DNA from: a virus | Taxonomy: Duplodnaviria > Heunggongvirae > Uroviricota > Caudoviricetes | DNA length: 13,069 nucleotides | Strand: one strand, 5' to 3' | Virus record (IMG/VR): IMGVR_UViG_2778261166_000004 | In this document: positions 1 through 13,069 of the stretch, piece by piece | How positions within the stretch are numbered: the first letter of the stretch is position 1 | How the letters are laid out: every line of letters begins with the position of its first letter | Position numbers and translations under genes: made by a program | The notes under the pieces: model-generated | The model's input: only the letters and a program-made list of their open reading frames with translations | The model's database searches: none | Told to the model about the DNA's origin: nothing

Positions 1-1260
1 ATGAAGCTCAACGCCAGACAGGTCGAGACCGCAAAGCCAAAAGACAAAACCTACAAAATGGCCGATGGTGGTGGTTTGTATCTTGAGGTTTCGGCCAAAG
101 GTTCCAAATACTGGCGCATGAAATACAGACGTCCCTCTGACAAAAAAGAGGATCGTCTCGCTTTTGGTGTTTGGCCTACTGTGACGCTTGCTCAGGCAAG
201 AGCAAAACGCGATGAAGCTAAAAAGCTTTTAGTACAGGGCATAGACCCAAAAGTCGTACAAAAAGAAGCTCAGGCCGAGAATTCGGGGGCATATACTTTT
301 GAAACTATCGCCCGAGAATGGCATGCCAGTAACAAGCGCTGGAGTGAAGACCATCGAGCGCGCGTTCTTCGCTATCTTGAGCTTTATATCTTCCCTCATA
401 TCGGTTCGTCCGACATTCGGCAGCTTAAAACCAGCCACCTGTTAGCCCCGATTAAAAAAGTTGATGCCAGTGGCAAACACGATGTCGCTCAGCGCCTGCA
501 ACAGCGCGTCACAGCCATTATGCGTTATGCCGTACAGAACGATTACATCGACTCAAATCCAGCCAGCGATATGGCTGGTGCACTATCGACAACCAAAGCG
601 CGCCATTATCCTGCTTTACCTTCTAGCCGGTTCCCTGAGTTTCTTGCACGTCTTGCTGCATATCGTGGTCGCGTAATGACGCGGATTGCGGTTGAGCTTT
701 CCTTACTAACTTTTGTGCGTTCCAGTGAGTTACGTTTCGCGCGTTGGGATGAGTTTGATTTCGATAAATCTCTCTGGCGAGTACCTGCAAAACGAGAAGA
801 AATTAAAGGAGTGCGTTATTCGTACCGTGGCATGAAGATGAAAGAAGAGCATATCGTTCCGCTTAGTCGGCAAGCGATGATTTTGCTAAACCAGTTAAAG
901 CAGATTAGTGGTGATAAAGAACTGCTTTTTCCGGGGGATCATGACGCAACTAAGGTTATGAGTGAAAATACAGTAAATAGCGCATTGCGTGCGATGGGCT
1001 ATGACACGAAAACCGAAGTTTGCGGGCACGGGTTTAGAACGATGGCGCGTGGAGCATTAGGGGAATCAGGCTTATGGAGTGATGATGCGATTGAACGTCA
1101 GCTAAGTCACTCAGAACGTAATAATGTACGTGCTGCTTATATTCATACATCTGAGCATTTAGACGAAAGGCGTTTAATGATACAGTGGTGGGCAGATTAT
1201 TTAGATAGAAATAAGAAAGAAAGTATTACACCATATGATTTTGCTAGACAACTTAAATAG
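1..1260 (+). CDS. int: P4-type tyrosine integrase (site-specific recombinase)
   Basis: 419-aa ORF. The N-terminus carries the P4-integrase arm-binding signature (MKLNARQVETAKPKDKTYKMADGGGLYLEV...KYWRMKYR). The C-terminal catalytic region has HGFRTMARG (His-x-x-Arg) and a downstream Tyr in AAYIHTSEHL. It sits at the edge of the element next to the presumed tRNA attachment site outside the window. Confidence 0.92.
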   Translation: MKLNARQVETAKPKDKTYKMADGGGLYLEVSAKGSKYWRMKYRRPSDKKEDRLAFGVWPTVTLAQARAKRDEAKKLLVQGIDPKVVQKEAQAENSGAYTFETIAREWHASNKRWSEDHRARVLRYLELYIFPHIGSSDIRQLKTSHLLAPIKKVDASGKHDVAQRLQQRVTAIMRYAVQNDYIDSNPASDMAGALSTTKARHYPALPSSRFPEFLARLAAYRGRVMTRIAVELSLLTFVRSSELRFARWDEFDFDKSLWRVPAKREEIKGVRYSYRGMKMKEEHIVPLSRQAMILLNQLKQISGDKELLFPGDHDATKVMSENTVNSALRAMGYDTKTEVCGHGFRTMARGALGESGLWSDDAIERQLSHSERNNVRAAYIHTSEHLDERRLMIQWWADYLDRNKKESITPYDFARQLK

Positions 1261-1266
1261 TATTTT

Positions 1267-1304
1267 AACCTAGCCAGAATTTTTGTAGTCTCGCTGGCTA
1301 GGTT
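1267..1304. terminator. Perfect 11-bp inverted repeat (aacctagccag / ctggctaggtt) between convergent int and cassette genes; probable bidirectional terminator
   Basis: Seen directly: stem 1267-1277 pairs with 1294-1304 around a 16-nt loop, flanked by A/T-rich sequence. It lies in the 54-nt gap between the int stop (1260) and the minus-strand gene end (1315). Confidence 0.5.
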
Positions 1305-1314
1305 AATTTAAAAG

Positions 1315-1899
1315 CTAATCATTCACATCAAGAGTTAAGAGTGCGTGCATTCTTTTAACAATCATAATGATATTCAAAATTAAATGTACGCAAACATATA
1401 TTATGAGTGGGCATAAAAAATAGTATAACACATTTAATTTTAGAGTTGTGTTTATTATGCTGACATAATATTCATGTGTTTTGCCGTAAAAGAATCCTGA
1501 TTGATTGACAGGAAACAGTGATACTATAAAACACAACACGACTAACAAAACTCCACATAAAATTGAATAACAAATGTTATAATAAAGTTCAGTGAGTAAT
1601 GCTTTCTTTGATTCATAGAATGTATCAATATCTTTTCTTTGTCTTATTTTTGATTCTTGATCATATACTAAAACAAGAACGCTAAGCAGTAATGCTGTTA
1701 GTATTGCACTGAAATTAACTAATAATGATATTAAATCTTTTGTTATACCACTTCCTAGGAGTGAGAATGCGGCAGAAATAATAAATGGTAGTATTATGAA
1801 TGTAAATATATCCCATAAACTGATCTTATTAGTGTCAGCATTTTTTAAAGTTCTGAAGTGGCCTATAAGAACTTCGCATATATTTATCTTTGAACTCAT
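1315..1899 (-). CDS. Small integral membrane protein (four predicted transmembrane helices); candidate effector of the cargo cassette
   Basis: 194-aa ORF with four long hydrophobic stretches (approx. residues 27-49, 56-79, 106-128, 155-181) separated by short charged loops. Its ATG overlaps the stop of the upstream gene (TAATG) and AGGAG lies 9 nt upstream, indicating translational coupling. The DNA is strongly AT-rich compared with the P4 backbone. Confidence 0.75.
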   Translation of the reverse strand: MSSKINICEVLIGHFRTLKNADTNKISLWDIFTFIILPFIISAAFSLLGSGITKDLISLLVNFSAILTALLLSVLVLVYDQESKIRQRKDIDTFYESKKALLTELYYNICYSILCGVLLVVLCFIVSLFPVNQSGFFYGKTHEYYVSIINTTLKLNVLYYFLCPLIIYVCVHLILNIIMIVKRMHALLTLDVND

Positions 1900-2825
1900 T
1901 ACGCTCTCCTTATAGTAACACCACGATATAACAACTGTATATATTCCATGATAATAACATCAACAAAATTATTTAGTGATGCTATTTCCGGCATGCCATC
2001 ATAAAAAACAACTTGTTCTTCATCAAATAAAATTTCACATACAGCTCCCCTTGCTGTTGTTCCAATATGAAAAGTTCTTTTTCTGCCATTATCTAATTCA
2101 ACAACTGTTTTTACTGTTTCTCCATATTCTTTAAGGACTTCAACGAGTTGATATTGCTCCGAGCCTCTGGAGAAATAGTCTCGAAGTCTTCCAAGTCCTG
2201 CATTTCGAGGCGGTTTGATAATTAATTCTTGCTCGTTATGGCCTAGCTTTTTGGCTTGTTCAGCTACATCTGTAATGCCATGGAATTTAGTTACCTTGAT
2301 TTCTTTGGTAATGGCATCCATCCATTTTTCAATCGCTTTATCATACGCCAGAGGGTTCATTTGAATCACTAAGTTGGTAACCCTCTTGAAATAATCTGAA
2401 AACAATCTCATAAAAAGAGTTTTTATACCATCACCTCTATATGTATGTAAAAACGCCATGCCTTCATTTACATCTCTAGGAATATAAAAATGTATGTAAT
2501 ATCTAATTATTTCAGCATTGTTTTTTGTCTTTTCGAAGTCTACATCGCCAGTTTTAATGTTTATTATGTCGGTCTTTGTTCCGTAATATCCAGACTCGAA
2601 CCATCCATATATTTCTCGATTGTTGTTATCGCGTGTAATCTCATTAAAACGAAAAACTTGTTTGGTTTCTTCAGAAAGGATATATTCTTCATTATACTGC
2701 TTAATAAATTCATCGAGTATATCAAGTAAATCATGTTCTCTGATGTTACTCAGTGCTGAATAACGTTGTTCTTTGGCTGCGTTCGGATTGTAGCAGCGGA
2801 AAAGATACGGTGCTAAAGCGTGCAT
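1899..2825 (-). CDS. Hypothetical soluble protein (308 aa), first gene of the cargo cassette; candidate sensor/regulator partner of the membrane protein
   Basis: Uninterrupted 308-codon ORF with a strong RBS (GGAGA, 6-nt spacer) before the ATG at 2825. The product is Lys/Glu/Tyr/Asn-rich with no hydrophobic segments. I see no Walker A, HNH, PD-(D/E)xK or nucleotidyltransferase GS...DxD motif. It is AT-rich and co-oriented with, and overlapping, the downstream membrane gene. Confidence 0.75.
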   Translation of the reverse strand: MHALAPYLFRCYNPNAAKEQRYSALSNIREHDLLDILDEFIKQYNEEYILSEETKQVFRFNEITRDNNNREIYGWFESGYYGTKTDIINIKTGDVDFEKTKNNAEIIRYYIHFYIPRDVNEGMAFLHTYRGDGIKTLFMRLFSDYFKRVTNLVIQMNPLAYDKAIEKWMDAITKEIKVTKFHGITDVAEQAKKLGHNEQELIIKPPRNAGLGRLRDYFSRGSEQYQLVEVLKEYGETVKTVVELDNGRKRTFHIGTTARGAVCEILFDEEQVVFYDGMPEIASLNNFVDVIIMEYIQLLYRGVTIRRA

Positions 2826-2900
2826 TGTTATCTCCTTTTTTAATGGAGATTAGCAACTTATCACTATAAGATCAACGAACGTTCAATATGGAAAGGGATA
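2826..2900 (-). promoter_or_regulatory. Putative promoter region of the cargo operon
   Basis: AT-rich 5' region just upstream of the operon RBS. On the minus strand there is a TTGAAC ... TGATAA/TATAGT arrangement, but the spacing is not canonical. The call rests mainly on position. Confidence 0.3.
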
Positions 2901-3059
2901 ATTCTGCTTGGTATTTTTCTTTTAATAATATTGGGGTGCTTTAGTGCGATATTTTGATGATTAGTGTGTGTTCGGCAGTAGAAGCTATCCATAGGCAGTG
3001 ATGTTTCTGCATATAGAATGTTTTAATTATCAAACACATAATTTTCGATTGCGCGCGCA

Positions 3060-3078
3060 GTGCTTTCCCCGCCTCGCC
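3060..3078 (-). other. cos site: 19-nt P2/P4 cohesive-end sequence (GGCGAGGCGGGGAAAGCAC on the minus strand)
   Basis: The plus strand reads gtgctttccccgcctcgcc, the exact reverse complement of the recalled P2/P4 cohesive-end sequence. It lies between psu and the cargo cassette, where cos sits in P4. A GC-rich hairpin follows at about 3079-3100. Confidence 0.85.
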
Positions 3079-3185
3079 CGCCCGCTTTGCGGGGCGGTTT
3101 TAATGCAGTTGCACTGACACGCTCAGGCCGTGCCGGGAATGGCGCGGTATACAGAAAATGAGGCAGGAAAACGCATGCAAAGCCA

Positions 3186-3216
3186 TGCACCTTATCGATG
3201 CATGGCTTTTTTCAGT
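3186..3216 (-). terminator. Hairpin downstream of psu (gccatgca...tgcatggc) with flanking T/A runs; possible late-operon terminator
   Basis: 8-bp inverted repeat around a 9-nt loop, 30-60 nt beyond the psu stop. It is followed by a T-run on the plus strand and by TTTGCATGCGTTTT on the minus strand. Orientation is ambiguous. Confidence 0.4.
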
Positions 3217-3242
3217 AAAAACAGGCGGATTTTCGGGGAATT

Positions 3243-3815
3243 TTACACAGACTGACGTGATGCCAGTTGCGCACTTTTACGCGAAAAAATCATGTTCTGC
3301 GCAGGAGTGAATTTTTCACGGCTGTCATCCACCGAAGCCGCGTCAGGCCTGAATCCGATGGTCGTTAAAATGTCGCTATCCTGTGCGGAATAATTAATTT
3401 TTTCCCCCTTCGCAAGCCAGGACAGAAGGGCTTCACGCAGGGCATCTGTGGCACGCTGTATGGCACAGTTTCGGGCAATGGCCGTCAGCTCACTGTAGCC
3501 CATCAGCTCCGGTGCCAGTGCCGCCGCCAGTGCTGTGCCGTGCTGCTGCATAAAATCATTCAGCCGGTCGCGGATGCTGATGTGCTGAACGGCTTCATGC
3601 GAACGAATATAACGACCGGCGGCCTGATTCACCTGCCATTTTCTGACTTCGATAATATTGCGTAATTCGTCCAGGCGACTGACGTTTCTGCCTTCTCCTG
3701 ACAGAAGCCGCAGGTATTCCTGTTCGGCCGCTGCCAGCTCATTTTTGCGTTGCAGCCATGCTGCTTTGTTATTCTGACAGGTGTCAAAGGCCTGCTGTAA
3801 GGCTGTGCTTTCCAT
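3243..3815 (-). CDS. psu: Psu (polarity suppression / capsid decoration protein, Rho antagonist)
   Basis: 190-aa ORF, the length of P4 Psu, last in the sid-delta-psu order next to cos. The N-terminal sequence MESTALQQAFDTCQNNKAAW matches my recollection of P4 Psu. Not verified by alignment. Confidence 0.88.
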   Translation of the reverse strand: MESTALQQAFDTCQNNKAAWLQRKNELAAAEQEYLRLLSGEGRNVSRLDELRNIIEVRKWQVNQAAGRYIRSHEAVQHISIRDRLNDFMQQHGTALAAALAPELMGYSELTAIARNCAIQRATDALREALLSWLAKGEKINYSAQDSDILTTIGFRPDAASVDDSREKFTPAQNMIFSRKSAQLASRQSV

Positions 3816-3888
3816 CGTTATCTCTTTCTCATCATGCTGAAGAATAAAAATACGGTGTGCGGCGACGGCCGGTGTTAACCGGCAGCCC

Positions 3889-4389
3889 TCATTCCAGACG
3901 CAGCGAATATGATTGTGTTTTTAAGCGTACTGGCGGCAGTTCCTGTTTTTCATGCAGGCTTTCTGCCAGTTCGTCCGGCGTGACCGGGCGGACAATGAAA
4001 CGGTTGATGGTCTGAAGCGTTTTAAACACCAGACCACAGCCCGGATCCGTGCACACATAAAAACGCTCGGTGACTTCCTGAGACAGACGCCTCGATGTTC
4101 TTGACAGTGCAAGGCCTTTACATCTCCGACAACAATATCCGGTAACAAGCATTCTTTTCGGGCGTTTCATACTGCCGGAGGCTGACGTCAGTGAATCGCG
4201 GTATCTCTGTTTGCCTGAAATGTATTCCATTCCTGAATCTTTACTGTCAGAGAAAAAGCTTTCACTCGCTTCAAATGTCGCAGAGCAATAAATATTCCGG
4301 CACTGTGCAATCATTATCTTGGTGCCATCGTCCATGAAATGTGCGCGGCGGGTGTGAGCAACATGTCCACACGACGGGCAGTAAATCAT
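3889..4389 (-). CDS. delta: Delta (Ogr-family zinc-finger late transcription activator, duplicated Ogr-like domains)
   Basis: 166-aa ORF, the length of P4 Delta. It has two Ogr-like Cys4 units (CPSCGHVAH...CRNIYCSATF and CCRRCKG...CTDPGCGLVF). Its ATG overlaps the sid stop (ATGA), and it lies between sid and psu. Confidence 0.9.
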   Translation of the reverse strand: MIYCPSCGHVAHTRRAHFMDDGTKIMIAQCRNIYCSATFEASESFFSDSKDSGMEYISGKQRYRDSLTSASGSMKRPKRMLVTGYCCRRCKGLALSRTSRRLSQEVTERFYVCTDPGCGLVFKTLQTINRFIVRPVTPDELAESLHEKQELPPVRLKTQSYSLRLE

Positions 4390-5120
4390 GACAGCAGTCC
4401 TCTGGCCTTAAGCTCTGCACCCTGCTGGTCTATTTTGTCCTGCCACACCTTGCGCTGTGCCGGTGTGCCTGCCACCTCATAATCCATGTGCGGGAGTGTT
4501 GCCGCTGACAGTCCGGTCAGCCGGAGAACCGGCTCGCCGGTGAGGCTGATTTGCATCTGTTTAATTTTCTGTTCCAGCGATGATTTCACCTGCTGCATGA
4601 CAGCCTTATCGGGTGCGACGTAGCCCTGATGGCCGGTGGTGTTGGCGAGCGGATTTTCCTGTACCAGGATACTCAGATGCATTGCCCGGACAAGCGCCTC
4701 ACAGGTTTCATTCAGGGCGTGTTCCAGCTCATGCTCTGCATACAGACTCAGAAGGTGATGATGTGCCTTCCGGTAGGCGGTGGCCGTGCTGTCACACGCC
4801 CCTTTCAGGCGTTCACGTTCGAAATTCAGCACCACGGCCAGATTGTCATATTCCTGTACCAGCTCCCGGCGTGCCACGCGCTCAATGTGGCGCTGTTTCA
4901 GCTCGTCGCTCAGGACACCACCGGCTGCACGAAAGGCCGTGCGCCAGTCGTCAGCGTCGTTTCCGTCGGCCTGCGCCAGCGCATTTTTTTCCTGCTCTGC
5001 CCGTTCAATGGCCGTGACGGTCTCATCCATCAGGCGGGCGTTCTCAAGATGGGCGGCTCTGGCCTTTTCCAGTTGTGCCAGCGCGGGTTGCAGATATTCA
5101 GGGATGGTGTTGTCAGACAT
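4386..5120 (-). CDS. sid: Sid (external scaffold / capsid size determination protein)
   Basis: The ORF track gives 250 aa from a GTG at 5138. The ATG at 5120 has a strong RBS (GAGGAG, 7-nt spacer) and gives 244 aa, the P4 Sid length, starting MSDNTIPEY. It is the first gene of the late operon. Confidence 0.88.
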   Translation of the reverse strand: MSDNTIPEYLQPALAQLEKARAAHLENARLMDETVTAIERAEQEKNALAQADGNDADDWRTAFRAAGGVLSDELKQRHIERVARRELVQEYDNLAVVLNFERERLKGACDSTATAYRKAHHHLLSLYAEHELEHALNETCEALVRAMHLSILVQENPLANTTGHQGYVAPDKAVMQQVKSSLEQKIKQMQISLTGEPVLRLTGLSAATLPHMDYEVAGTPAQRKVWQDKIDQQGAELKARGLLS

Positions 5121-5146
5121 TTTCCGGCTCCTCGTCACTTCAGGTT

Positions 5147-5210
5147 AAGAAAATTGTGACGTACACCGGACAACAACACGACGCATTGCAGATGTGCCAG
5201 CCCTGACACA
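5147..5210 (-). promoter_or_regulatory. Psid-type late promoter with two TGT-N12-ACA Delta/Ogr binding dyads
   Basis: Seen: TGT-N12-ACA at 5193-5210 and again at 5155-5172. If transcription starts near 5147 (27-nt leader to sid), these are centred near -55 and -18. That matches the recalled arrangement of P4 late promoters, which have a second Delta site near -18. Confidence 0.55.
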
Positions 5211-5289
5211 GGAGACTCATCCTCAGACCGGCAAGCCAGGAAAAGGTCGCAGGAAAAACCGGCTTACTGTTTGTTTTTTTATATTTTAC

Positions 5290-5393
5290 TGTTCACCTCT
5301 GTTCACCATAAGAAAAAAGATAAGTAATACAGTAATTTAAAGGGTGAACAATCGCAGTAATGACTGTTCACCGTCTGTTCACCACTGTTCACC
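5290..5393. repeat. ori-like cluster of type I iterons (octamer TGTTCACC, six copies in both orientations)
   Basis: Seen: TGTTCACC at ~5290, 5300, 5365, 5376, 5386 and inverted GGTGAACA at ~5343, followed by an AT-rich tract (5400-5480). It lies between the divergent late promoters, ~4.8 kb from the second iteron cluster, consistent with P4 ori versus crr. Confidence 0.7.
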
Positions 5394-5551
5394 CGTTCAT
5401 GGACTTTTTGTGCTGTTTATTACTTTTTATTTTTATTAATTAACTGAAATAAATAAGAAAAAACAATTTGTATTTCACTATAATTTTTTCCAGCTCCTTC
5501 CAGAGCGTTTTAAAGCTATCTGGCGCTGATGTACAAAAAATACACAGTCAT

Positions 5552-5620
5552 TGTAAGGCTGCCGGAACAAATCCCCCCTGTTGCGTCTGCTGAAAATATT
5601 CACAAAATAAAGCGCTACCC
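5552..5620 (+). promoter_or_regulatory. PLL-type late leftward-operon promoter (single TGT-N12-ACA Delta dyad) upstream of vis
   Basis: TGT-N12-ACA seen at about 5551-5569 (tgtaaggctgccggaaca). This predicts a start near 5614, ~58 nt before the vis ATG and ~400 nt upstream of the sigma70-like promoter at 5974-6003, matching the recalled PLL-PLE spacing in P4. The -10 is weak, as expected for an activator-dependent promoter. Confidence 0.45.
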
Positions 5621-5671
5621 GAAGCCGGACGGACTTATCCGGTGCTGTATGGACATTAACGAGGTAGCCCG

Positions 5672-5938
5672 ATGCAAGCTGTTTTTTCTTCCCCGTCTCC
5701 CGCCCCTGTGACGCCACTGATGCCGCTGCCGGACATCACGCAGGAGCGTTTTTTACGTCTGCCGGAAGTGATGCACCTGTGCGGCCTGTCACGCTCGACC
5801 ATCTACGAACTCATCCGTAAGGGGGAATTTCCGCCGCAGGTGAGTCTTGGCGGTAAAAATGTGGCCTGGCTGCACTCTGAAGTCACCGCATGGATGGCCG
5901 GACGCATTGCCGGACGCAAACGGGGGTACGACGCATGA
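5672..5938 (+). CDS. vis: Vis (AlpA-family helix-turn-helix regulator / excision directionality factor)
   Basis: 88-aa ORF with the AlpA-type HTH signature ([27 protein letters not shown]). It is the first gene after the PLL-like promoter. GAGG lies ~7 nt upstream of the ATG. Confidence 0.8.
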
Positions 5939-5973
5939 TGATGCCCGCTCTGCAAAAACTCCCTTTTTCTGGC

Positions 5974-6003
5974 TTGCCTTTTTCCGGCATTTGCGGATAT
6001 AGT
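5974..6003 (+). promoter_or_regulatory. Sigma70-like promoter (PLE-like early promoter): TTGCCT, 18-nt spacer, TATAGT
   Basis: Seen directly at 5974-5979 and 5998-6003. It lies just downstream of vis and ~400 nt downstream of the PLL-like site. Confidence 0.5.
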
Positions 6004-6066
6004 TTTTCCGCTGCCGCAAAATCGGCAGCCGGGCGTGAGAACCCGAGCAATTCACAGGCGACATAT

Positions 6067-6088
6067 GACGCGCCACGCGTCTTTTTTT
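6067..6088 (+). terminator. Intrinsic terminator (gacgcg-cca-cgcgtc followed by T7) ~60-80 nt downstream of the early promoter
   Basis: Seen: 6-bp GC-rich stem, 3-nt loop, then seven T residues. A second hairpin (gctgccg / cggcagc, 6010-6029) lies between promoter and terminator. The geometry suggests a short attenuated transcript or small RNA, as in the P4 immunity region. Confidence 0.6.
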
Positions 6089-6336
6089 GTGTCGCAATCA
6101 ATGCCACAGAGCGCCAGATTATGGTGTGGTGTGTGGTCAGTCGTGCAGATGGCATTCCGTGCATCCTGCCTGCGTCCGCTCATTATGCCGCAGAGTCAAT
6201 GGTAGCTCAGGCGGGGCAGCCTCCGGGCTGGCCGGTATCCTGTGAAGCCGGTATTCTCACCCCCGTCTGGGCTATCGCCATCGAGCGTGAGAACTCCGGC
6301 GATAGCGTTATTTGCTATTCACAGGAGGCTGCCATC

Positions 6337-6534
6337 ATGGCTACAACCCTTACCCCCTCACACCCTGAATTTGTCTTTGTGTTTGCGGCTGTCCGTCGCG
6401 CAGACCGTCATCCCCGTATCTGTATGCTTCGCACCGTCGCCGGTGATGAACGCAGTGCCCGCCGTTCCCTTGTCCGTGACTATGTGCTCTCCCTTGCTGC
6501 CCGTCTGCCGGTGGTGGAGGTGTCCCGTGCGTAA
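6337..6534 (+). CDS. Hypothetical small protein (65 aa) nested in a longer open frame (5935/6121/6199..6534)
   Basis: ATG at 6337 is preceded by AGGAGG with an 8-nt spacer. The product ([65 protein letters not shown]) looks protein-like. The same frame stays open upstream to 5890/5935 (199 aa from the ATG at 5935), but that part spans the promoter and terminator above and is Cys/Trp/Pro-rich. The true start is uncertain. Confidence 0.45.
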
Positions 6535-6814
6535 TAAAAAAGCCCCTCAGACCGTCTCAGCGCGTCATGACGCCCGTGAACACCTCAGCATTGAGGCTTA
6601 CCATAAGCTCAACCGCGCCAGCGCCGTATCCCAGTTTGTTGGGGGTGATTTGATTCACCGTGAACTCTCCGGCCTGCATCAGCTCTACATTCCGCATATT
6701 TTCAGCTACCTGAATGAAGATATTGATTTTGTGCTGAATGAACTGAAAGCCAAAGGCCTGTGCCGCGATTTTCTCGCCCAGCAGAAAGACCGGGGAGACA
6801 GGACGCATGTTTGA
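6527..6814 (+). CDS. epsilon: Epsilon (helper-prophage derepression protein)
   Basis: A GTG start at 6527 with GGAGG 9 nt upstream gives exactly 95 aa, the P4 Epsilon length. The in-frame upstream extension to 6242 is low-complexity Pro/Ser/Leu-rich and looks non-coding. The stop overlaps the start of orf151. Confidence 0.75.
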
Positions 6815-7262
6815 TTTTCCCCAGCCCGGTGAGATTTACCGTTCTGCCGGTTTTCCCGATGTGGCCGTGGTCGGCATTCTGGAAGACGGTATTCCGTGGG
6901 AAATGCCGTACCGCTGCCCGGACATTGTCTGGAACCCGTACCGCCGTAAATTCAGTATCCTTGTGCGTATCCTCGCTGACGGGCGCACCACAGACATCCC
7001 GCTGGGGCGTTTTCTGCGGGAATTTACCTGTGACCGTCCTGACCTGTTTAAACGCAGCCCCGTAAACCGGCATGCGGTACTGAAAGAAATGGCCGGAGAC
7101 CCGGAATTACAGAAATGGCGGGAGAAATATCTGGATATTTACCCGCAGGACCCTGTTCCGGTCAGCCGGGCGGCACCGGTGGCGCGGGAATGGCGGGAAA
7201 TCCCCCGCACGGAGCCTGACCCGGAAATCACACCGGATAACAGTTACCGCAATTATCTGTAA
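6807..7262 (+). CDS. P4 orf151-like protein (function unknown)
   Basis: 151-aa ORF in the conserved position between epsilon and alpha. Its start overlaps the epsilon stop (ATGTTTGA). Confidence 0.75.
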   Translation: MFDFPQPGEIYRSAGFPDVAVVGILEDGIPWEMPYRCPDIVWNPYRRKFSILVRILADGRTTDIPLGRFLREFTCDRPDLFKRSPVNRHAVLKEMAGDPELQKWREKYLDIYPQDPVPVSRAAPVAREWREIPRTEPDPEITPDNSYRNYL

Positions 7263-7397
7263 TTAAAAAACGACACCCGAAAAATTAAATGTGCGTATTC
7301 GCGCAGGGATACGCACGTCTTCAGGAGACGCAGATATGCCTTATCAGTTAATGCAACCGGCACGGAATGCAGTCATCTGTCACAGGGAGGAAAACAA

Positions 7398-7718
7398 ATG
7401 AAAACACCCTTACCGCCCGTCTTACGCGCAGCCCTTTACCGTCGCGCTGTCGCCTGTGCCTGGCTGACCGTGTGCGAACGTCAGCACCGCTACCCGCATC
7501 TCACCCTTGAATCACTGGAGGCGGCCATCGCCGCTGAGCTGGAAGGCTTTTATCTGCGCCAGCACGGTGAGGAAAAAGGGCGCCAGATAGCCTGTGCCCT
7601 GCTGGAAGATTTAATGGAATCCGGCCCCCTGAAGGCCGCGCCGTCGCTGTCCTTTCTCGGGCTGGTTGTGATGGATGAACTCTGTGCCCGTCACATAAAA
7701 GCGCCGGTACTGCACTGA
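7398..7718 (+). CDS. P4 orf106-like protein (function unknown)
   Basis: 106-aa ORF immediately upstream of alpha, with GGAGG 8 nt before the ATG. Confidence 0.75.
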
Positions 7719-7732
7719 AGGAGAACAACACC

Positions 7733-10066
7733 ATGAAAATGAACGTAACCGCCACCGTCAGCCATGCGCTCGGCCACTGGCCGCGTATTCTCCCGGCGCT
7801 GGGGATTCAGGTGCTGAAAAACCGTCATCAGCCCTGTCCGGTCTGTGGCGGGAGTGACCGCTTCCGTTTTGATGACAGGGAGGGGCGCGGCACCTGGTAC
7901 TGCAATCAGTGTGGTGCCGGTGACGGCCTGAAACTGGTTGAAAAGGTGTTTGGTGTTTCCCCGTCCGACGCGGCCACAAAGGTGGCTGCCGTGACCGGCA
8001 GCCTGCCCCCGACTGACCCGGCAGTGACGGCTGCCGCCGGTGCTGAAACAGACGCTGCCCGGAAGAACGCCGCCGCACTGGCACAAACCCTGATGGCGAA
8101 AACCCGTCCCGGAACCGGTAACGCCTACCTGACCCGCAAGGGCTTTCCCGGCCGGGAATGCCGGATGCTGACCGGCACACACAGAGCCGGTGGCGTGAGC
8201 TGGCGTGCCGGTGACCTTGTGGTGCCACTGTATGACGACAGCGGCGAACTGGTTAACCTTCAGTTAATCAGTGCTGACGGCCGTAAGCGCACCCTGAAAG
8301 GCGGGCAGGTCAGGGGCACCTGTCACATCCTTGAAGGACAGAATCAGGCCGGAAAACGTCTGTGGATAGCGGAGGGATACGCGACCGCACTTACCGTGCA
8401 TCACCTGACCGGTGAAACGGTGATGGTGGCGCTTTCTTCCGTGAACCTCCTTTCTCTGGCCAGCCTTGCCCGACAGAAGTATCCGGCCTGTCAGATTGTC
8501 CTTGCCGCAGACCGTGACCTCAGCGGTGACGGCCAGACAAAAGCCGCCGCAGCCGCAGATGCGTGTGAGGGCGTTGTTGCCCTGCCGCCGGTCTTCGGTG
8601 ACTGGAATGATGCCTTCACGCAGTACGGCGGGGAGGCCACCCGTAAGGCCATTTACGATGCCATCCGGCCACCGGCTGAAAGCCCGTTCGACACCATGAG
8701 CGAAGCAGAGTTTTCCGCCATGAGTACCAGCGAAAAGGCCATGCGTATCTATGAGCATTACGGCGAGGCGCTCGCGGTCGATGCCAACGGCCAGCTTCTG
8801 TCCCGCTATGAAAATGGTGTCTGGAAGGTACTGCCACCACAGGACTTTGCCCGGGATGTGGCCGGGCTGTTTCAGCGTCTGCGCGCGCCGTTCTCCTCCG
8901 GGAAAGTGGCCTCCGTGGTGGACACCCTGAAGCTGATTATTCCGCAGCAGGAAGCCCCCTCCCGCCGCCTGATTGGCTTTCGTAACGGCGTGCTCGACAC
9001 GCAGAACGGCACGTTCCACCCGCACAGTCCGTCACACTGGATGCGTACCCTGTGCGATGTGGATTTCACCCCGCCGGTGGACGGTGAAACGCTGGAGACC
9101 CACGCCCCCGCGTTCTGGCGCTGGCTTGACCGTGCCGCCGGTGGCCGTGCGGAAAAACGCGACGTGATTCTGGCTGCACTGTTTATGGTGCTGGCAAACC
9201 GCTACGACTGGCAGCTCTTTCTGGAGGTGACCGGTCCCGGCGGCAGCGGCAAAAGTATCATGGCCGAAATAGCCACCCTGCTGGCCGGGGAGGATAACGC
9301 CACGTCGGCCACCATTGAGACGCTGGAATCCCCGCGTGAACGTGCCGCGTTAACTGGCTTCTCACTGATACGCCTGCCGGACCAGGAAAAATGGAGCGGC
9401 GACGGAGCCGGACTCAAGGCCATCACCGGCGGCGATGCGGTGTCCGTTGACCCGAAATACCGGGATGCGTACTCCACGCACATCCCGGCGGTGATTCTGG
9501 CCGTGAACAATAACCCGATGCGCTTCACCGACCGCAGCGGCGGCGTGTCACGCCGGCGGGTGATTATTCACTTCCCGGAACAGATAGCCCCGCAGGAGCG
9601 CGACCCGCAGCTTAAGGACAAAATCACCCGCGAGCTGGCGGTCATCGTGCGTCACCTGATGCAGAAGTTCAGCGACCCGATGCTCGCCCGGTCACTGCTT
9701 CAGTCCCAGCAGAACTCAGACGAGGCGCTGAACATCAAACGGGATGCCGACCCGACGTTTGATTTTATCGGCTATCTGGAAACCCTGCCGCAGACCAGCG
9801 GCATGTATATGGGGAACGCCAGTATCATCCCGCGCAATTACCGTAAATACCTCTATCACGCCTATCTGGCCTACATGGAGGCAAACGGCTACCGGAATGT
9901 ACTCAGTCTGAAAATGTTCGGGCTGGGGCTGCCGGTGATGCTGAAGGAATACGGACTGAATTACGAGAAGCGCCATACCAAACAGGGGATACAGACCAAC
10001 CTGACGCTGAAAGAGGAAAGCTACGGCGACTGGCTGCCAAAATGTGAAGACCCTGCAACAACCTGA
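7733..10066 (+). CDS. alpha: Alpha: bifunctional primase-helicase and origin-binding replication protein
   Basis: 777-aa ORF, the P4 Alpha length. It has an N-terminal zinc-binding primase motif (CPVCGGSDRFRFDD...WYCNQCG), a TOPRIM-like acidic region (LAADRD), and a Walker A P-loop (GPGGSGKS) in the helicase domain. RBS AGGAG. Iteron clusters flank the operon. Confidence 0.95.
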   Translation: MKMNVTATVSHALGHWPRILPALGIQVLKNRHQPCPVCGGSDRFRFDDREGRGTWYCNQCGAGDGLKLVEKVFGVSPSDAATKVAAVTGSLPPTDPAVTAAAGAETDAARKNAAALAQTLMAKTRPGTGNAYLTRKGFPGRECRMLTGTHRAGGVSWRAGDLVVPLYDDSGELVNLQLISADGRKRTLKGGQVRGTCHILEGQNQAGKRLWIAEGYATALTVHHLTGETVMVALSSVNLLSLASLARQKYPACQIVLAADRDLSGDGQTKAAAAADACEGVVALPPVFGDWNDAFTQYGGEATRKAIYDAIRPPAESPFDTMSEAEFSAMSTSEKAMRIYEHYGEALAVDANGQLLSRYENGVWKVLPPQDFARDVAGLFQRLRAPFSSGKVASVVDTLKLIIPQQEAPSRRLIGFRNGVLDTQNGTFHPHSPSHWMRTLCDVDFTPPVDGETLETHAPAFWRWLDRAAGGRAEKRDVILAALFMVLANRYDWQLFLEVTGPGGSGKSIMAEIATLLAGEDNATSATIETLESPRERAALTGFSLIRLPDQEKWSGDGAGLKAITGGDAVSVDPKYRDAYSTHIPAVILAVNNNPMRFTDRSGGVSRRRVIIHFPEQIAPQERDPQLKDKITRELAVIVRHLMQKFSDPMLARSLLQSQQNSDEALNIKRDADPTFDFIGYLETLPQTSGMYMGNASIIPRNYRKYLYHAYLAYMEANGYRNVLSLKMFGLGLPVMLKEYGLNYEKRHTKQGIQTNLTLKEESYGDWLPKCEDPATT

Positions 10067-10081
10067 CCCTCATGACTCATC

Positions 10082-10107
10082 TGACCGGCATCTGCCGGTC
10101 TTTTTTT
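10082..10107 (+). terminator. Intrinsic terminator after alpha (tgaccggca-tc-tgccggtc followed by T7)
   Basis: Seen: GC-rich stem and T7 run beginning 16 nt after the alpha stop. Confidence 0.7.
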
Positions 10108-10125
10108 ATCCCTGAATTCCCCGAA

Positions 10126-10398
10126 GGTGAACAATCCACTGTTCACCCTTCACCGTATATTCACCTGTTATCACACTGAAATTAAAAGAGAAAAACGAAA
10201 GGTGAACAGTGTGAACAATCAAATCAAAAAAAACTTTTTTCTCCCTGTGTGATTTTCAGTACGGGGGATTAATCACCGGTATGAGTCACACCGGCAGAAT
10301 GCCGGAGGTGAAGAATCGAATGTTCACCCTTCACCCATTATTCACCACCTATCATACTGAAATAAAAGGAGAAAAAAGAAAGGTGAACAGTGTGAACA
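10126..10398. repeat. crr-like cis replication region: two ~77-bp direct repeats (about 10140-10216 and 10321-10398), each carrying TGTTCACC / GGTGAACA iterons
   Basis: Seen: the two copies align nearly base for base (tgttcacccttcacc...ttcacc...ctgaaat...gaaaggtgaacagtgtgaaca). An additional inverted iteron is at 10126-10133. The region is AT-rich and lies downstream of alpha. Confidence 0.7.
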
Positions 10399-10610
10399 GT
10401 TCTTTCGAAAAAAAAATTTTTATGTGGATAAAAGATGCACTGGTTTGGATCCGGGCTACGGATCCAAACTTACTGATTAAAAATTATTTAACTTTCCGAT
10501 TTATTGATGGGCTGAAAATAGATTGGTCAGAAAAACAGTGGGGGCACAAAAGGGGGCATATTTCATTGTTGTGTTTTATTATTTGTTTTTTATCATTAAC
10601 TTATTTTAAT

Positions 10611-10632
10611 GTTTGAGTCCGGCCTTCGCACC
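10611..10632 (+). other. Putative attR core: tRNA 3'-end-like sequence (gtttgagtccggccttcgcacc)
   Basis: It resembles the T-arm/acceptor end of a tRNA (GGTTCGAGTCCGGCCTTCGGCACCA-like, as recalled for tRNA-Leu leuX, the classical P4 attachment site). P4-family elements integrate into tRNA 3' ends and leave a partial copy at the far junction. Similarity is judged by eye. Confidence 0.4.
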
Positions 10633-10662
10633 TTCGCACCTTCGCACCTTCGCACCTTCGCA
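10623..10662 (+). repeat. Tandem octamer array (ccttcgca x5 perfect, plus a degenerate sixth copy to 10670)
   Basis: Seen directly. The unit is the distal end of the tRNA-like att core. Confidence 0.85.
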
Positions 10663-10866
10663 CCATCGGAACATCAATAGACATCAACGGACGTTTTTTT
10701 ATGACTGAAATCCGCGCCACACAAGGCTTTTCGCTATTTTTCGCTCAACCTAAGTCAACCTACATCAACTTACTGATGTGGATACAGCTACAGCTGCGGC
10801 TATATCCCGATTCGATAATGTTTGTACCCACACAAAACCCTTGAAAGGCTACAAGGCTGAAATTGT

Positions 10867-11052
10867 CTAAACCATAGAGATGATTTTTATGATCCAGTCT
10901 TTCTCTTGTTGAGATAGTTCCAGTTTGCTCACTCGTGTTAAGAAGGTATTGATCACCTGAACATCCGAATTGGTGAGCCTATTTAATAGAGCGGGTGGTA
11001 TACCTTTACTAACAATCGCTTTGCGGTGACTTTCGTAGTTTTTATTACTCAT
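10867..11052 (-). CDS. Hypothetical small protein (61 aa)
   Basis: ORF with GAGGA 8 nt upstream of the ATG. No family recognised. It lies outside the satellite, between attR and the HNH gene. Confidence 0.35.
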   Translation of the reverse strand: MSNKNYESHRKAIVSKGIPPALLNRLTNSDVQVINTFLTRVSKLELSQQEKDWIIKIISMV

Positions 11053-11108
11053 TGTTGATCCTCAAAAATCATTGTATGGCGGCATTGATCGTTTCCAGCA
11101 ACCTTTAC

Positions 11109-11351
11109 TTACTCACTTCGAACTGCATCCTCGTAGACTGTTCCACTACAATAATCGAAAAGGCGCGGATGTCCATTCAGGTATCCCGCTAATACGTATA
11201 GCAATAACAATGGCTTATGCGGCGCGCGCTGTTCACCCTTGTGCCAGATTTTTATATTGGCAATTGCCTGCTGTAGCGATTTACTGGAAGCCATTGATAT
11301 CCCTGGCAGTGAAATAATTGCGATCATGCTCGCAAATTTTCTGCTGTTCAA
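11109..11351 (-). CDS. Hypothetical small ORF (80 aa from TTG; 61-72 aa from internal ATGs); possibly a gene remnant
   Basis: The ORF-track start is TTG. Internal ATGs lack a convincing RBS. It is in a different frame from the adjacent 61-aa ORF, so the two could be a frameshifted remnant of one gene. Confidence 0.2.
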   Translation of the reverse strand: MNSRKFASMIAIISLPGISMASSKSLQQAIANIKIWHKGEQRAPHKPLLLLYVLAGYLNGHPRLFDYCSGTVYEDAVRSE

Positions 11352-11430
11352 GCCTGCAAGTGAAGATATATTACCTTGATCTCATTTGTTTTTTTGCTGC
11401 CTGTTCTGAGAACGTATAAGGACATTCTCC

Positions 11431-12081
11431 ATGAATAAACTCCCTGATCATCTTCCGCGGCGGTATATCATCGAAGCTATCCATTTATGGGATGCGGGAG
11501 AAACTCATCAGTTCCAGCCTGCGCGGTTGTATGAGATTGAATATCATGGCCGACGTTACCCCTCGAAGGCGATTGCTGGCATCGCAGCGACATTGATGAC
11601 GGGGACGCAATTTACCCCTGCGGATTTCACCGGCGGAATAAAATCTAAATGTGTCAAGCTACTCATAGAGCAGGGATTTCATATTCATCTGGATAAAGCC
11701 GCTGCGGCTCCCATAGCCGACGTTCTGTTCCCGGATGAGTTGCCGTCGCAGGAGACATACCTTGAAGGTGCGGCGATAAAGGTGACAGTAAACCGCTATG
11801 AACGCGATAAAAAGGCCCGAGATAAAGCGGTCGAACATCATGGATGCCAGTGCAACGTATGCGGTGTTGATCTGGTGAAGATCTATGGTGATATCGCTGA
11901 AGGCTTTATCCATGTGCATCACCTGGTGCCGCTGTCAGCCATTAAAGAGGATTACCAGCTGGATCCAGTTAATGATTTGCTGCCTGTGTACCCTAATTGC
12001 CATGCGATGTTGCACCGACGCAAACCACCGTTTACGCCGGAGCAGTTAAAAGCGCTGATGGATGCGAATAAATCAAATTAA
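11431..12081 (+). CDS. HNH endonuclease family protein with an uncharacterised N-terminal domain (possible McrA-like modification-dependent restriction nuclease)
   Basis: 216-aa ORF. The C-terminus has an HNH-type motif set (CQCNVCG...HVHHLVPLS...N...YPNCHAMLH). The N-terminal ~100 aa is unrecognised. Confidence 0.7.
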   Translation: MNKLPDHLPRRYIIEAIHLWDAGETHQFQPARLYEIEYHGRRYPSKAIAGIAATLMTGTQFTPADFTGGIKSKCVKLLIEQGFHIHLDKAAAAPIADVLFPDELPSQETYLEGAAIKVTVNRYERDKKARDKAVEHHGCQCNVCGVDLVKIYGDIAEGFIHVHHLVPLSAIKEDYQLDPVNDLLPVYPNCHAMLHRRKPPFTPEQLKALMDANKSN

Positions 12082-12088
12082 TGAACGC

Positions 12089-13069
12089 TCACCTTTCGCG
12101 CCAAAACTGCAAAATTGCTTCTACAAACTTGTCAGAAATAATCCCCCGACGGGCTGCCGTGCTGAAATGACTGCTTCGCAGTGCCGTCGTCCAGTTCTCC
12201 GGTGACCGGTACGCTGAACCGTAATATCCCGTGCTTAAATCGTCCGGGTCTTCATCAGGCGCGTTCGTCAGTCCTCTTTCACCTTGTTGCTGGAAGTCGA
12301 CGAAAATAATATTGGCTAAAACATTATTTTGATAATTGCCATAAATAACTTCATACGCATGAGGGAAATTTTCTTTCCAGTACCAGGTGGTATCGCCGCA
12401 AAACCACGGTGCGTCAGTAATATTATTAAGCTGAGAATGGTATTGTTTTAGATCCCTACGAAAGGCTTCAACCATATGATTAAAGTGTTGAGGGTGTGAC
12501 GCGTAGTCACTGGTCATTAAGTCAAATTCGCCTTGCATCCAGCATACGCCGAGGAATTTGTTATGCGGATTTTTTGCCAGTGCGGCTCGCGTTCTGCTGA
12601 CTAAATCCTGGTATAGCGGAGTATCCGTTCCCCAACGACAAGCATCATGGCTGGCTCCGTGCCGTTCTGAATATGTCCCTTCGCTGCCCGCGGTAAAAGC
12701 CGATCCGCCACGGCAACACGGAACGATGAGAACCCCTGCATTATCAGGAATAAAGGGCAGTAATTTCCGTGCTATATGCAGTGCCTGGCCAACGGTGCCG
12801 TACTGTGTTTGATGATTCGTTGCCAGAGGATGGTGATAACCCTGCATATCCTGAACATCGTGTGGGCAGTGAGTCAGTGGAATAATGTCGTTAAAGTGAC
12901 ATGACGGGCCTCCGGGATGCGTATGCGCAAATCTCGCTAATTGTTTAATTCTGGGATGAGGCGCATCTTCCCTGTCCGGTAATGGCAGTCCTTCGCCATA
13001 CGCCATGGCATTAGACTGACCAGCAACGGTAAGAATATAGTAATAATCAGGCGATATTATTGCGTTCAT
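12089..13069 (-). CDS. nanS: Sialate O-acetylesterase (NanS/YjhS-like, SASA/SGNH-type)
   Basis: 326-aa ORF whose start is at the window edge. It has a GQSN motif near the N-terminus (TVAGQSNAMAYG), typical of sialate O-acetylesterases. Length and sequence match my recollection of E. coli YjhS/NanS, which lies near the leuX/fim region. Confidence 0.7.
   Translation of the reverse strand: MNAIISPDYYYILTVAGQSNAMAYGEGLPLPDREDAPHPRIKQLARFAHTHPGGPSCHFNDIIPLTHCPHDVQDMQGYHHPLATNHQTQYGTVGQALHIARKLLPFIPDNAGVLIVPCCRGGSAFTAGSEGTYSERHGASHDACRWGTDTPLYQDLVSRTRAALAKNPHNKFLGVCWMQGEFDLMTSDYASHPQHFNHMVEAFRRDLKQYHSQLNNITDAPWFCGDTTWYWKENFPHAYEVIYGNYQNNVLANIIFVDFQQQGERGLTNAPDEDPDDLSTGYYGSAYRSPENWTTALRSSHFSTAARRGIISDKFVEAILQFWRER

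Follow-up and report, generated by a model that had tools for sequence, protein, structure and literature searches.

The window, by which we mean the whole 13,069-nt stretch of DNA analysed, carried genes in the order vis (orf88), eta/kil, eps, orf151, orf106 and alpha, with sid, delta and psu lying divergently upstream, as in satellite phage P4. From position 3079 to 10635 it was collinear with P4 11624-4075 at 97.9% identity (approximately 7.5 kb), a span comprising psu, delta, sid, ori, vis, the immunity region, eps, orf151, orf106, alpha and crr, and reaching the att core. Window 5600-6900 matched P4 (X51522, X02534 and NC_001609) at 99.4% identity over 1301 nt, and P4 coordinates on X51522 were obtained as 14702 minus the window position. 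Judged by its sequence, the window represents a P4-like satellite in integrated form, and the stretch under study is P4's own immunity region. Given this identity and collinearity, its parts correspond to the published PLE promoter, seqA leader, t1 terminator, CI RNA, seqC and nested kil/eta genes. The features, with window coordinates, are as follows.

5672-5938, plus strand: vis (orf88), AlpA family (Pfam Phage_AlpA, 74 bits; P4 ORF88 annotation).
5935-6534, plus strand: eta, 197-199 codons, containing PLE, seqA, t1, cI, seqC and kil (ORF list, PGAP, literature and comparison).
5974-6003, plus strand: promoter PLE, -35 TTGCCT at 5974-5979, 18-nt spacer, -10 TATAGT at 5998-6003 (scan; hexamers conserved in 64 loci).
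6010-6029, plus strand: leader hairpin 1, GCTGCCG/CGGCAGC, a perfect 7 bp (pairs preserved across 35 sequences, including changes from C-G to U-A).
6030-6045, plus strand: leader hairpin 2, whose loop displays box b1 (compensatory G-C to A-U changes in 6 sequences; Rfam c4-a1b1).
6033-6058, plus strand: seqA target, box b1 GCGTGAGAAC at 6033-6042 and box a1 ATTCACAGG at 6050-6058 (complementary to CI; covaries across 68 loci).
6067-6088, plus strand: intrinsic terminator t1, GACGCG-CCA-CGCGTC at 6067-6081 (6-bp GC-rich stem, loop CCA), then T7.
6195-6282, plus strand: cI, encoding the CI (C4-family) antisense immunity RNA (Rfam C4; stem 6200-6277).
6238-6260, plus strand: seqB, with box a' UCCUGUGAA (6238-6246) located in the loop of the second hairpin and box b' UUCUCAC (6254-6260) in the internal loop.
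6285-6326, plus strand: seqC target, box b2 GCGTGAGAAC at 6285-6294 and box a2 ATTCACAGGA at 6317-6326.
6298-6306, plus strand: stretch that can pair with the 3' side of the CI stem (6271-6279), producing an alternative helix of 9 bp whose loop holds b2.
6323-6328, plus strand: kil Shine-Dalgarno AGGAGG, 8 nt before ATG 6337 (GGAG conserved in nearly all of 68 loci).
6337-6534, plus strand: kil, 65 codons, Icd-like protein, the 3' third of eta (NCBIfam phage_ICD_like, 76 bits).
6337-6493, plus strand: fragment with the Rho-dependent terminator timm, inside kil (mapped from X51522 8365-8209, PMC3177188).
6527-6814, plus strand: epsilon, which encodes the helper derepression protein and comes next in the operon (Pfam Derepression, 170 bits; P4 annotation).

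The sequence-only reading of this DNA had proposed P4-type immunity by premature termination with nested kil and eta genes, and alignment with the P4 PLE-cI-kil-eta region placed that proposal on firm ground: between 5900 and 6600 there were 3 substitutions in 701 nt and zero indels relative to X51522. The element differs from the P4 reference in being chromosomally integrated, in an integrase (window 1-1210) that is only 94% identical, and in carrying two unknown ORFs instead of the cII/beta/gop cargo; window 1211-3078 is non-P4 sequence. At positions 6009-6010 the window reads CG whereas the P4 reference record reads GC, and every relative sides with the window. Within the P4 immunity region (X51522 about 8730-8168), seqA, seqB, seqC, t1 and kil are present here without any substitution, and because they are unchanged the present element should be homoimmune with P4. 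Homologous regions were found in 1049 of 5426 complete E. coli genomes (approximately 19%).

For comparison, 78 loci encoding relatives of the alpha primase were collected from one-genome-per-species assemblies. Matches to isrK-like and C4 elements lay upstream of alpha, on the same strand, in 13 of 14 sampled loci, and profile searches placed both the leader and the C4 element in 68 loci, which formed the set for the comparison of target boxes.

Scanning for promoter and terminator patterns alone gave results at chance level: shuffled sequence led to an expectation of 1.5 promoter-like and 2.3 terminator-like sites, and one of each was present. The leader fold departed from shuffled sequence by only z = -1.65. 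Hence, significance had to be drawn from homology and conservation. In 64 related loci the motifs GGCTTGC (-35) and GGTA(T/C)AGT (-10) stood a constant distance apart, with variable bases between them, and transcription from PLE is predicted to start at about 6010, the position at which the Rfam isrK model match also begins. That match (RF01394) scored 69.7 bits against a gathering score of 50 over 6010-6087 on the plus strand, and c4-a1b1 (RF03163) scored 49.5 bits against 46.7 over 5997-6049, also on the plus strand. The leader consists of three conserved hairpins including t1 (35 sequences); t1, kept in 35 aligned sequences with compensatory G-C to C-G changes in 8, forms the 3' end of the isrK match, so that two 5' hairpins and a terminal intrinsic terminator are present as in isrK. 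The sigma70-like promoter (TTGCCT-18-TATAGT), the hairpin at 6010-6029 and the terminator at 6067-6088 noticed in the sequence-only reading were thus all recovered, and we regard promoter and terminator as real because the locus is identical to the characterized P4 locus and the sites are conserved across relatives.

We take this terminator to be the promoter-proximal one named t1 in P4, which lies between PLE and cI and is of the typical Rho-independent kind. Efficient termination there reportedly requires CI RNA and seqA, deletion of t1 is said to lead to higher CI levels, amounting to autoregulation, and an additional atypical terminator, t4, has reportedly been located between cI and timm. 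Partition-function folding, with and without seqA blocked, returned no antiterminator competing with t1, and the probability of the t1 hairpin was at least 0.88 whether or not seqA was blocked. With no folding alternative to t1, the way in which CI would enhance t1 is not explained by this analysis.

A small regulatory RNA had been predicted here from the letters alone, and Rfam found the C4/CI RNA and the seqA/IsrK-like leader; CI, however, was not between promoter and terminator but at 6195-6282, approximately 110 nt downstream of t1. What lies between promoter and terminator (6010-6088) is instead the seqA leader, a target that also yields a short by-product RNA. The C4 match (RF01695) reached 74.9 bits against a gathering score of 45 and covered model positions 1-87, the full length, on the plus strand. 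The CI region folded at -49.3 kcal/mol (z = -5.17 against shuffles) into a long basal stem with two hairpins, as for C4 RNAs, and the structure was supported by covariation, with none of its 28 pairs broken and 8 showing compensatory changes among 36 sequences. We take the ends of the mature CI RNA to lie near 6201 and 6279. As a P4-type RNA, CI would be processed by RNase P together with PNPase. What the P4 literature names seqA and CI RNA has been equated with the IsrK and C4 homologs that P4-like prophages carry (Barquist et al., PMC3632133), and P4 immunity has been described as pairing of CI RNA with seqA and seqC that leads to premature termination (Hershko-Shalev et al., PMC4825925). 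PMC5499578 also cites CI and C4 as substrates of RNase P.

Within the 13-kb window, GCGTGAGAAC had just two occurrences, at 6033 and 6285, as had ATTCACAGG, at 6050 and 6317, and both repeats flank cI. The former is complementary to CI 6254-6260 and the latter to CI 6239-6246, segments that are single-stranded in the fold. RNAduplex of whole CI against sliding windows gave approximately -40 kcal/mol nearly everywhere, reflecting GC-rich sequence and a calculation that ignores CI structure, and it was replaced by exact-complement and box analysis, which revealed the complementarity. Across the 68 loci, changes in the leader, CI and downstream boxes were coupled, a three-way covariation. The repertoire comprised 16 a' types and 7 b' types in 29 combinations, a modular pattern of change. 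Mean contiguous pairing was 7.0/8.2/7.0/8.9 nt, compared with 4.0/4.6/4.0/4.9 nt when CI was swapped among loci, and none of 1000 such permutations reached the observed value. We regard this covariation as direct sequence evidence for the published mechanism, with the boxes as the determinants of immunity specificity. In addition, all 9 pairs between 6271-6279 and 6298-6306 could form in 63 of the 68 loci, and compensatory changes were seen. RNAalifold returned only a weak consensus for the seqC region (-2.4 kcal/mol), after which this helix was detected by direct pairing counts.

Box a2 overlaps the Shine-Dalgarno sequence of kil and ends in the GGAG of the RBS in nearly all 68 loci. The first 80 nt (6337-6416) of the timm fragment, as defined by the Milan group, contained 38% C and 20% G and were among the strongest C-over-G stretches of the window, as would be expected for a Rho loading site. 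Codon-position entropy in kil was 0.37/0.33/1.00, and the Icd-like domain (Kil residues 12-59) is the only curated protein domain in the long frame.

The mechanical ORF containing kil (5890-6534) spans 214 codons, and its 199-codon version begins at ATG 5935, the first of three tandem ATGs (5935, 5938 and 5941; ATGATGATG at 5935-5943). Here the stop codon of vis overlaps the start of eta (ATGA). Both frame lengths had been noted from the sequence alone, together with in-frame ATGs at 6121, 6199 and 6337 of which only the last has a strong RBS, and each of these observations held: all three ATGs are in frame with 5890, and AGGAGG precedes 6337 alone. The conservation of ATG 6199 is due to its position within the 5' strand of the CI stem. 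Extension of the frame to 214 codons from ATG 5890 was rejected in favor of the 199-codon frame as eta, as was the historical 137-aa 'cI/ash' CDS from ATG 6121, an ATG confined to the closest relatives of P4. PGAP labels the 199-aa frame an 'Icd-like' protein. In PMC10111431, which cites Forti et al. 1999, PLE is described as lying inside eta, with kil a truncated form translated from PLE read-through transcripts; eta is there reported to be translated from an upstream late promoter, its translation being needed against termination.

The suspicion that the long ORF call was partly wrong is not supported, although it holds some truth. Eta is the 199-codon frame, and in 60 of 65 untruncated relatives no stop interrupts it between the vis overlap and the end of kil; among the five exceptions, three were length-shifted by 1-2 nt, one lacked the upstream ATG and one was diverged upstream. 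The remaining five frames held 2.9-5.0 stops per locus, the neutral expectation for stop-creating substitutions in the eta frame was at least 16, and the leader-to-C4 spacings of 185, 176, 146, 143 and 140 nt differed from one another by multiples of three throughout. Selection at the protein level, however, is confined to the kil third. dN/dS was 0.61-1.07 in five segments upstream of kil compared with 0.20 in kil, and codon-position entropy upstream of kil was flat (e.g., 0.85/0.90/0.89 in the t1-cI spacer). Pfam Phage_ASH (PF10554) matched residues 22-146 at 85 bits, coinciding with the RNA elements. These data suggest that upstream eta is kept for the act of translation, or ribosome transit, and not for its N-terminal protein sequence. 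In the P4 literature examined, we did not find it stated that the eta frame is kept for translation itself. A reading in which translation matters and sequence does not agrees with the published conclusion that eta translation prevents termination.

A possible extension of these observations, on which we are evenly divided, is that eta codons 1-134 are a 'ribosome track' and not a domain, that PF10554 is largely translated RNA and that the 9-bp helix could be the structure of the atypical terminator. Selection would remove stops and frameshifts so that vis-coupled ribosomes cross seqA, t1, cI and seqC on late transcripts, and their transit would keep CI from pairing, hairpins from forming and Rho from loading, while the amino-acid sequence would be free to drift. 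Phage_ASH would then largely represent conserved RNA elements in translation, and helix 6271-6279/6298-6306 could underlie the atypical terminator reported between cI and timm.

Taken as a whole, the stretch is very probably the region that governs immunity and early control in a P4 satellite prophage, working as published for P4. The functional steps of this model rest on published P4 work, and the location of timm, its Rho dependence and the eta/kil logic were taken from the literature. The processing of CI, the positions of its ends and the dependence of t1 termination on CI are presumed here from the background on P4. Constitutive PLE would produce a transcript from approximately 6010 carrying, in that order, the seqA leader, t1, cI, seqC and kil (with timm), from which CI would be excised as a stable RNA of approximately 80 nt. 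Boxes a' and b' (seqB) of CI would pair with seqA and seqC on nascent PLE transcripts. At seqC, CI would mask the kil Shine-Dalgarno sequence and prevent Kil translation; on the naked, C-rich kil RNA, Rho would terminate at timm, leaving epsilon, orf151 and the alpha primase off. At seqA, CI would increase termination at t1 and lower the supply of its own precursor, an autoregulation of which the short seqA/IsrK-like RNA would be a by-product. Upon firing of the upstream late promoter PLL, the same DNA would be read as the 199-codon eta, translationally coupled to vis, and eta ribosomes crossing seqA, t1, cI and seqC would let the transcript escape immunity and read through. The sequence-only reading had set a short transcript against a full-length 199-aa protein as opposed outcomes. 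On this analysis they are not exclusive: short transcripts and full-length Eta would both exist, from different promoters.

Related arrangements occur in known systems. In the immI region (c4-icd-ant) of P1/P7, as seen in the P1-like phage D6, an isrK-like leader and terminator are likewise followed by C4, and boxes a2/b2 lie over the RBS of an Icd-like gene, as here; the Icd-like domain of P1/P7 is the one also carried by Kil, and D6 DNA was 72-75% homologous to the window across C4 and the start of icd. In contrast to the present locus, where eps, orf151 and alpha follow kil, the antirepressor gene ant lies downstream of icd in the P1/P7 operon and is coupled to it in translation, and D6 shows the icd-ant order. 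D6 also has stops in all three frames across leader and C4, and thus no eta-type translational bypass. That D6 possesses leader, C4 and icd, yet has these stops, indicates that the RNA elements do not force an open frame. In the Gifsy-1 IsrK-orf45/STnc1160-anrP region of Salmonella (RF01394), the leader likewise ends at a partly read-through intrinsic terminator, a processed RNA of approximately 80 nt lies downstream of it, and a first ORF that is silent in translation acts as a gate for the gene after it. IsrK was called a structural homolog of the P4 seqA RNA by its authors (PMC4825925). The locus is homologous to both the P1/P7 c4-icd-ant module and the Gifsy-1 IsrK-STnc1160-anrP module. 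The regulators differ: in Gifsy-1 the short RNA is a reported trans activator of translation, with an antirepressor and an antiterminator as output, whereas the documented regulator of P4 is CI, a repressor and termination factor unlike Gifsy-1 IsrK. Hfq binding by isrK and trans-activation of the downstream ORF have been reported only for Gifsy-1 (PMC4825925).

This likeness to Gifsy-1 raises the question of whether the IsrK-like RNA of 6010-6088 is itself an active trans-regulator that binds CI or the read-through transcript and turns on kil translation. The Rfam isrK match is full length at 69.7 bits, short IsrK of Gifsy-1 activates translation of the read-through mRNA in trans (PMC4825925), and a transposon screen in Salmonella Typhi identified the IsrK-like elements carried by P4-like prophages as required (PMC3632133). 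Its seqA boxes are, moreover, the same as the seqC boxes and could compete for CI. We nevertheless consider such a role doubtful. In P4 genetics, seqA is reportedly needed to establish immunity and t1 deletion reportedly raises CI, which fits a role in cis. A trans role for this RNA is compatible with the P4-type immunity model, and the two do not exclude one another. More improbable, and rejected here, is that the N-terminal two thirds of the 199-aa frame form a functional 'Ash' domain to which the RNA-like features are secondary. The 85-bit Phage_ASH match over residues 22-146, the conserved open frame and the PGAP annotation of all 199 aa would be accounted for in this way. However, third-position periodicity was absent upstream of kil, dN/dS there was several-fold that of kil, and the conserved stretches were exactly the RNA helices and promoter hexamers, with covariation of the RNA type; the sole curated protein domain, Icd-like, lies in kil.

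An intrinsic terminator within 60-80 nt of a promoter also recalls a trp-type attenuator, in which translation of a leader peptide would select between terminator and antiterminator at 6067-6088. This is highly improbable and was rejected: 6010-6067 held no short leader ORF with an RBS, folding gave no antiterminator against a persistently stable terminator, and the variable boxes covaried with a trans RNA and not with the terminator arms. The probability that the promoter-like and terminator-like sites are chance matches in an ordinary gene is close to nil. Scan counts no higher than in shuffled sequence would allow it, but the comparative data refute it, with the locus identical to the characterized P4 locus, the sites conserved and covarying across 64-68 loci, and three Rfam matches above their gathering scores.

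The immunity region described here is already known, being a near-verbatim copy of a classic RNA-based phage immunity system. What the comparison adds is modest: the eta-specific part lacks constraint at the protein level, the boxes form a combinatorial repertoire, and an alternative 9-bp helix is conserved. The main relevance is for annotation. Standard pipelines call the 199-aa frame an 'Icd-like protein', old P4 records retain a 137-aa 'cI gene product', and CI RNA, the seqA leader and t1 were without a feature entry in any annotated record examined. The same DNA would be read in two ways, as a structured regulatory RNA from PLE and as a translated frame from PLL, and across 68 elements its 16 by 7 box types in 29 combinations constitute a modular, combinatorial immunity code.

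In the basal stem of CI, the 3' strand (6271-6279) is alternatively able to pair with 6298-6306, just 3' of CI, forming a 9-bp helix whose loop contains the b2 box. This helix and the mature CI stem are mutually exclusive. Direct pairing counts across the 68 related loci with both leader and C4 RNA located showed that all nine pairs were retained in 63, and compensatory changes between the two strands were found, e.g., GCTATCGCC/GGCGATAGC versus GCTACCACC/GGTGGTAGC. The alternative helix may have a link with processing, or else with the atypical terminator that reportedly lies between cI and timm in P4.

Upstream, the window differs from the P4 reference records at 6009-6010 (X51522 8693-8692), reading CG where these records have GC. 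All 68 relatives match the window at this position, and CG supplies the closing pair, G6010-C6029, of leader hairpin 1. A mistake in the reference sequence of 1984/1990, or a change in the laboratory strain, probably accounts for the GC of the P4 records. At locus L075:41-330 from Mangrovibacter yixingensis, the seqA boxes were of one specificity type (GCGTAGGAAC / ACTCAATGG), while the boxes of CI (TTTCCAC, CCGTTAGA) and seqC (GCGTGGAAAC, TCTAACGG) were of a different type. This locus has the appearance of a recombinant whose seqA has ceased to match the CI of the same locus.

The Pfam family PF10554 (Phage_ASH) matched window 5998-6373, equivalent to Eta residues 22-146, a span coinciding exactly with the stretch that contains PLE, seqA, t1, cI, and seqC. 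Within this part of eta, dN/dS was approximately 0.6 to 1.1 and comparison of related loci revealed no codon periodicity. PF10554 appears to be a model of translated RNA elements. In old P4 records, a 137-aa 'cI gene product' is still annotated over the same stretch.

Homology to P4 stops at ~10635, at the att core, and the remainder of the window (10636-13069) harbors two more ORFs:

11431-12081, plus strand, 216-aa ORF with a weak, below-threshold HNH match
12089-13069, minus strand, ORF with a SASA/sialate-esterase domain, extending past the window end

A search for tRNA genes across the window found none, and the integration site is therefore not seen within it. Among otherwise near-identical elements this site varies, as illustrated by two alpha primase loci, L001 at selC and L084 at ssrA. 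Six other such loci (L006-L009, L054, and L065) carried P4 alpha genes with 76 to 99% identity to that of the window in assemblies labeled Clostridiales, Ferruginibacter, Dysgonomonas, Ruminococcus, and Vagococcus. Of these loci, five were on small contigs from metagenome-assembled genomes, and contamination with enterobacterial DNA through binning or assembly is the likely cause.

Between psu and int, at the cargo hotspot of P4-like satellites, the window encodes the following in place of cII/beta/gop of P4:

1315-2825, minus strand, two adjoining ORFs of 194 aa and 308 aa, inside the non-P4 segment 1211-3078

Pfam and PADLOC searches returned no match for either ORF. Among 5426 complete E. 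coli genomes, only 7 covered the cassette at 80% or more, and there it is annotated as hypothetical. Given the known content of the psu-int hotspot (PMC9122126), the cassette is a candidate uncharacterised anti-phage system.
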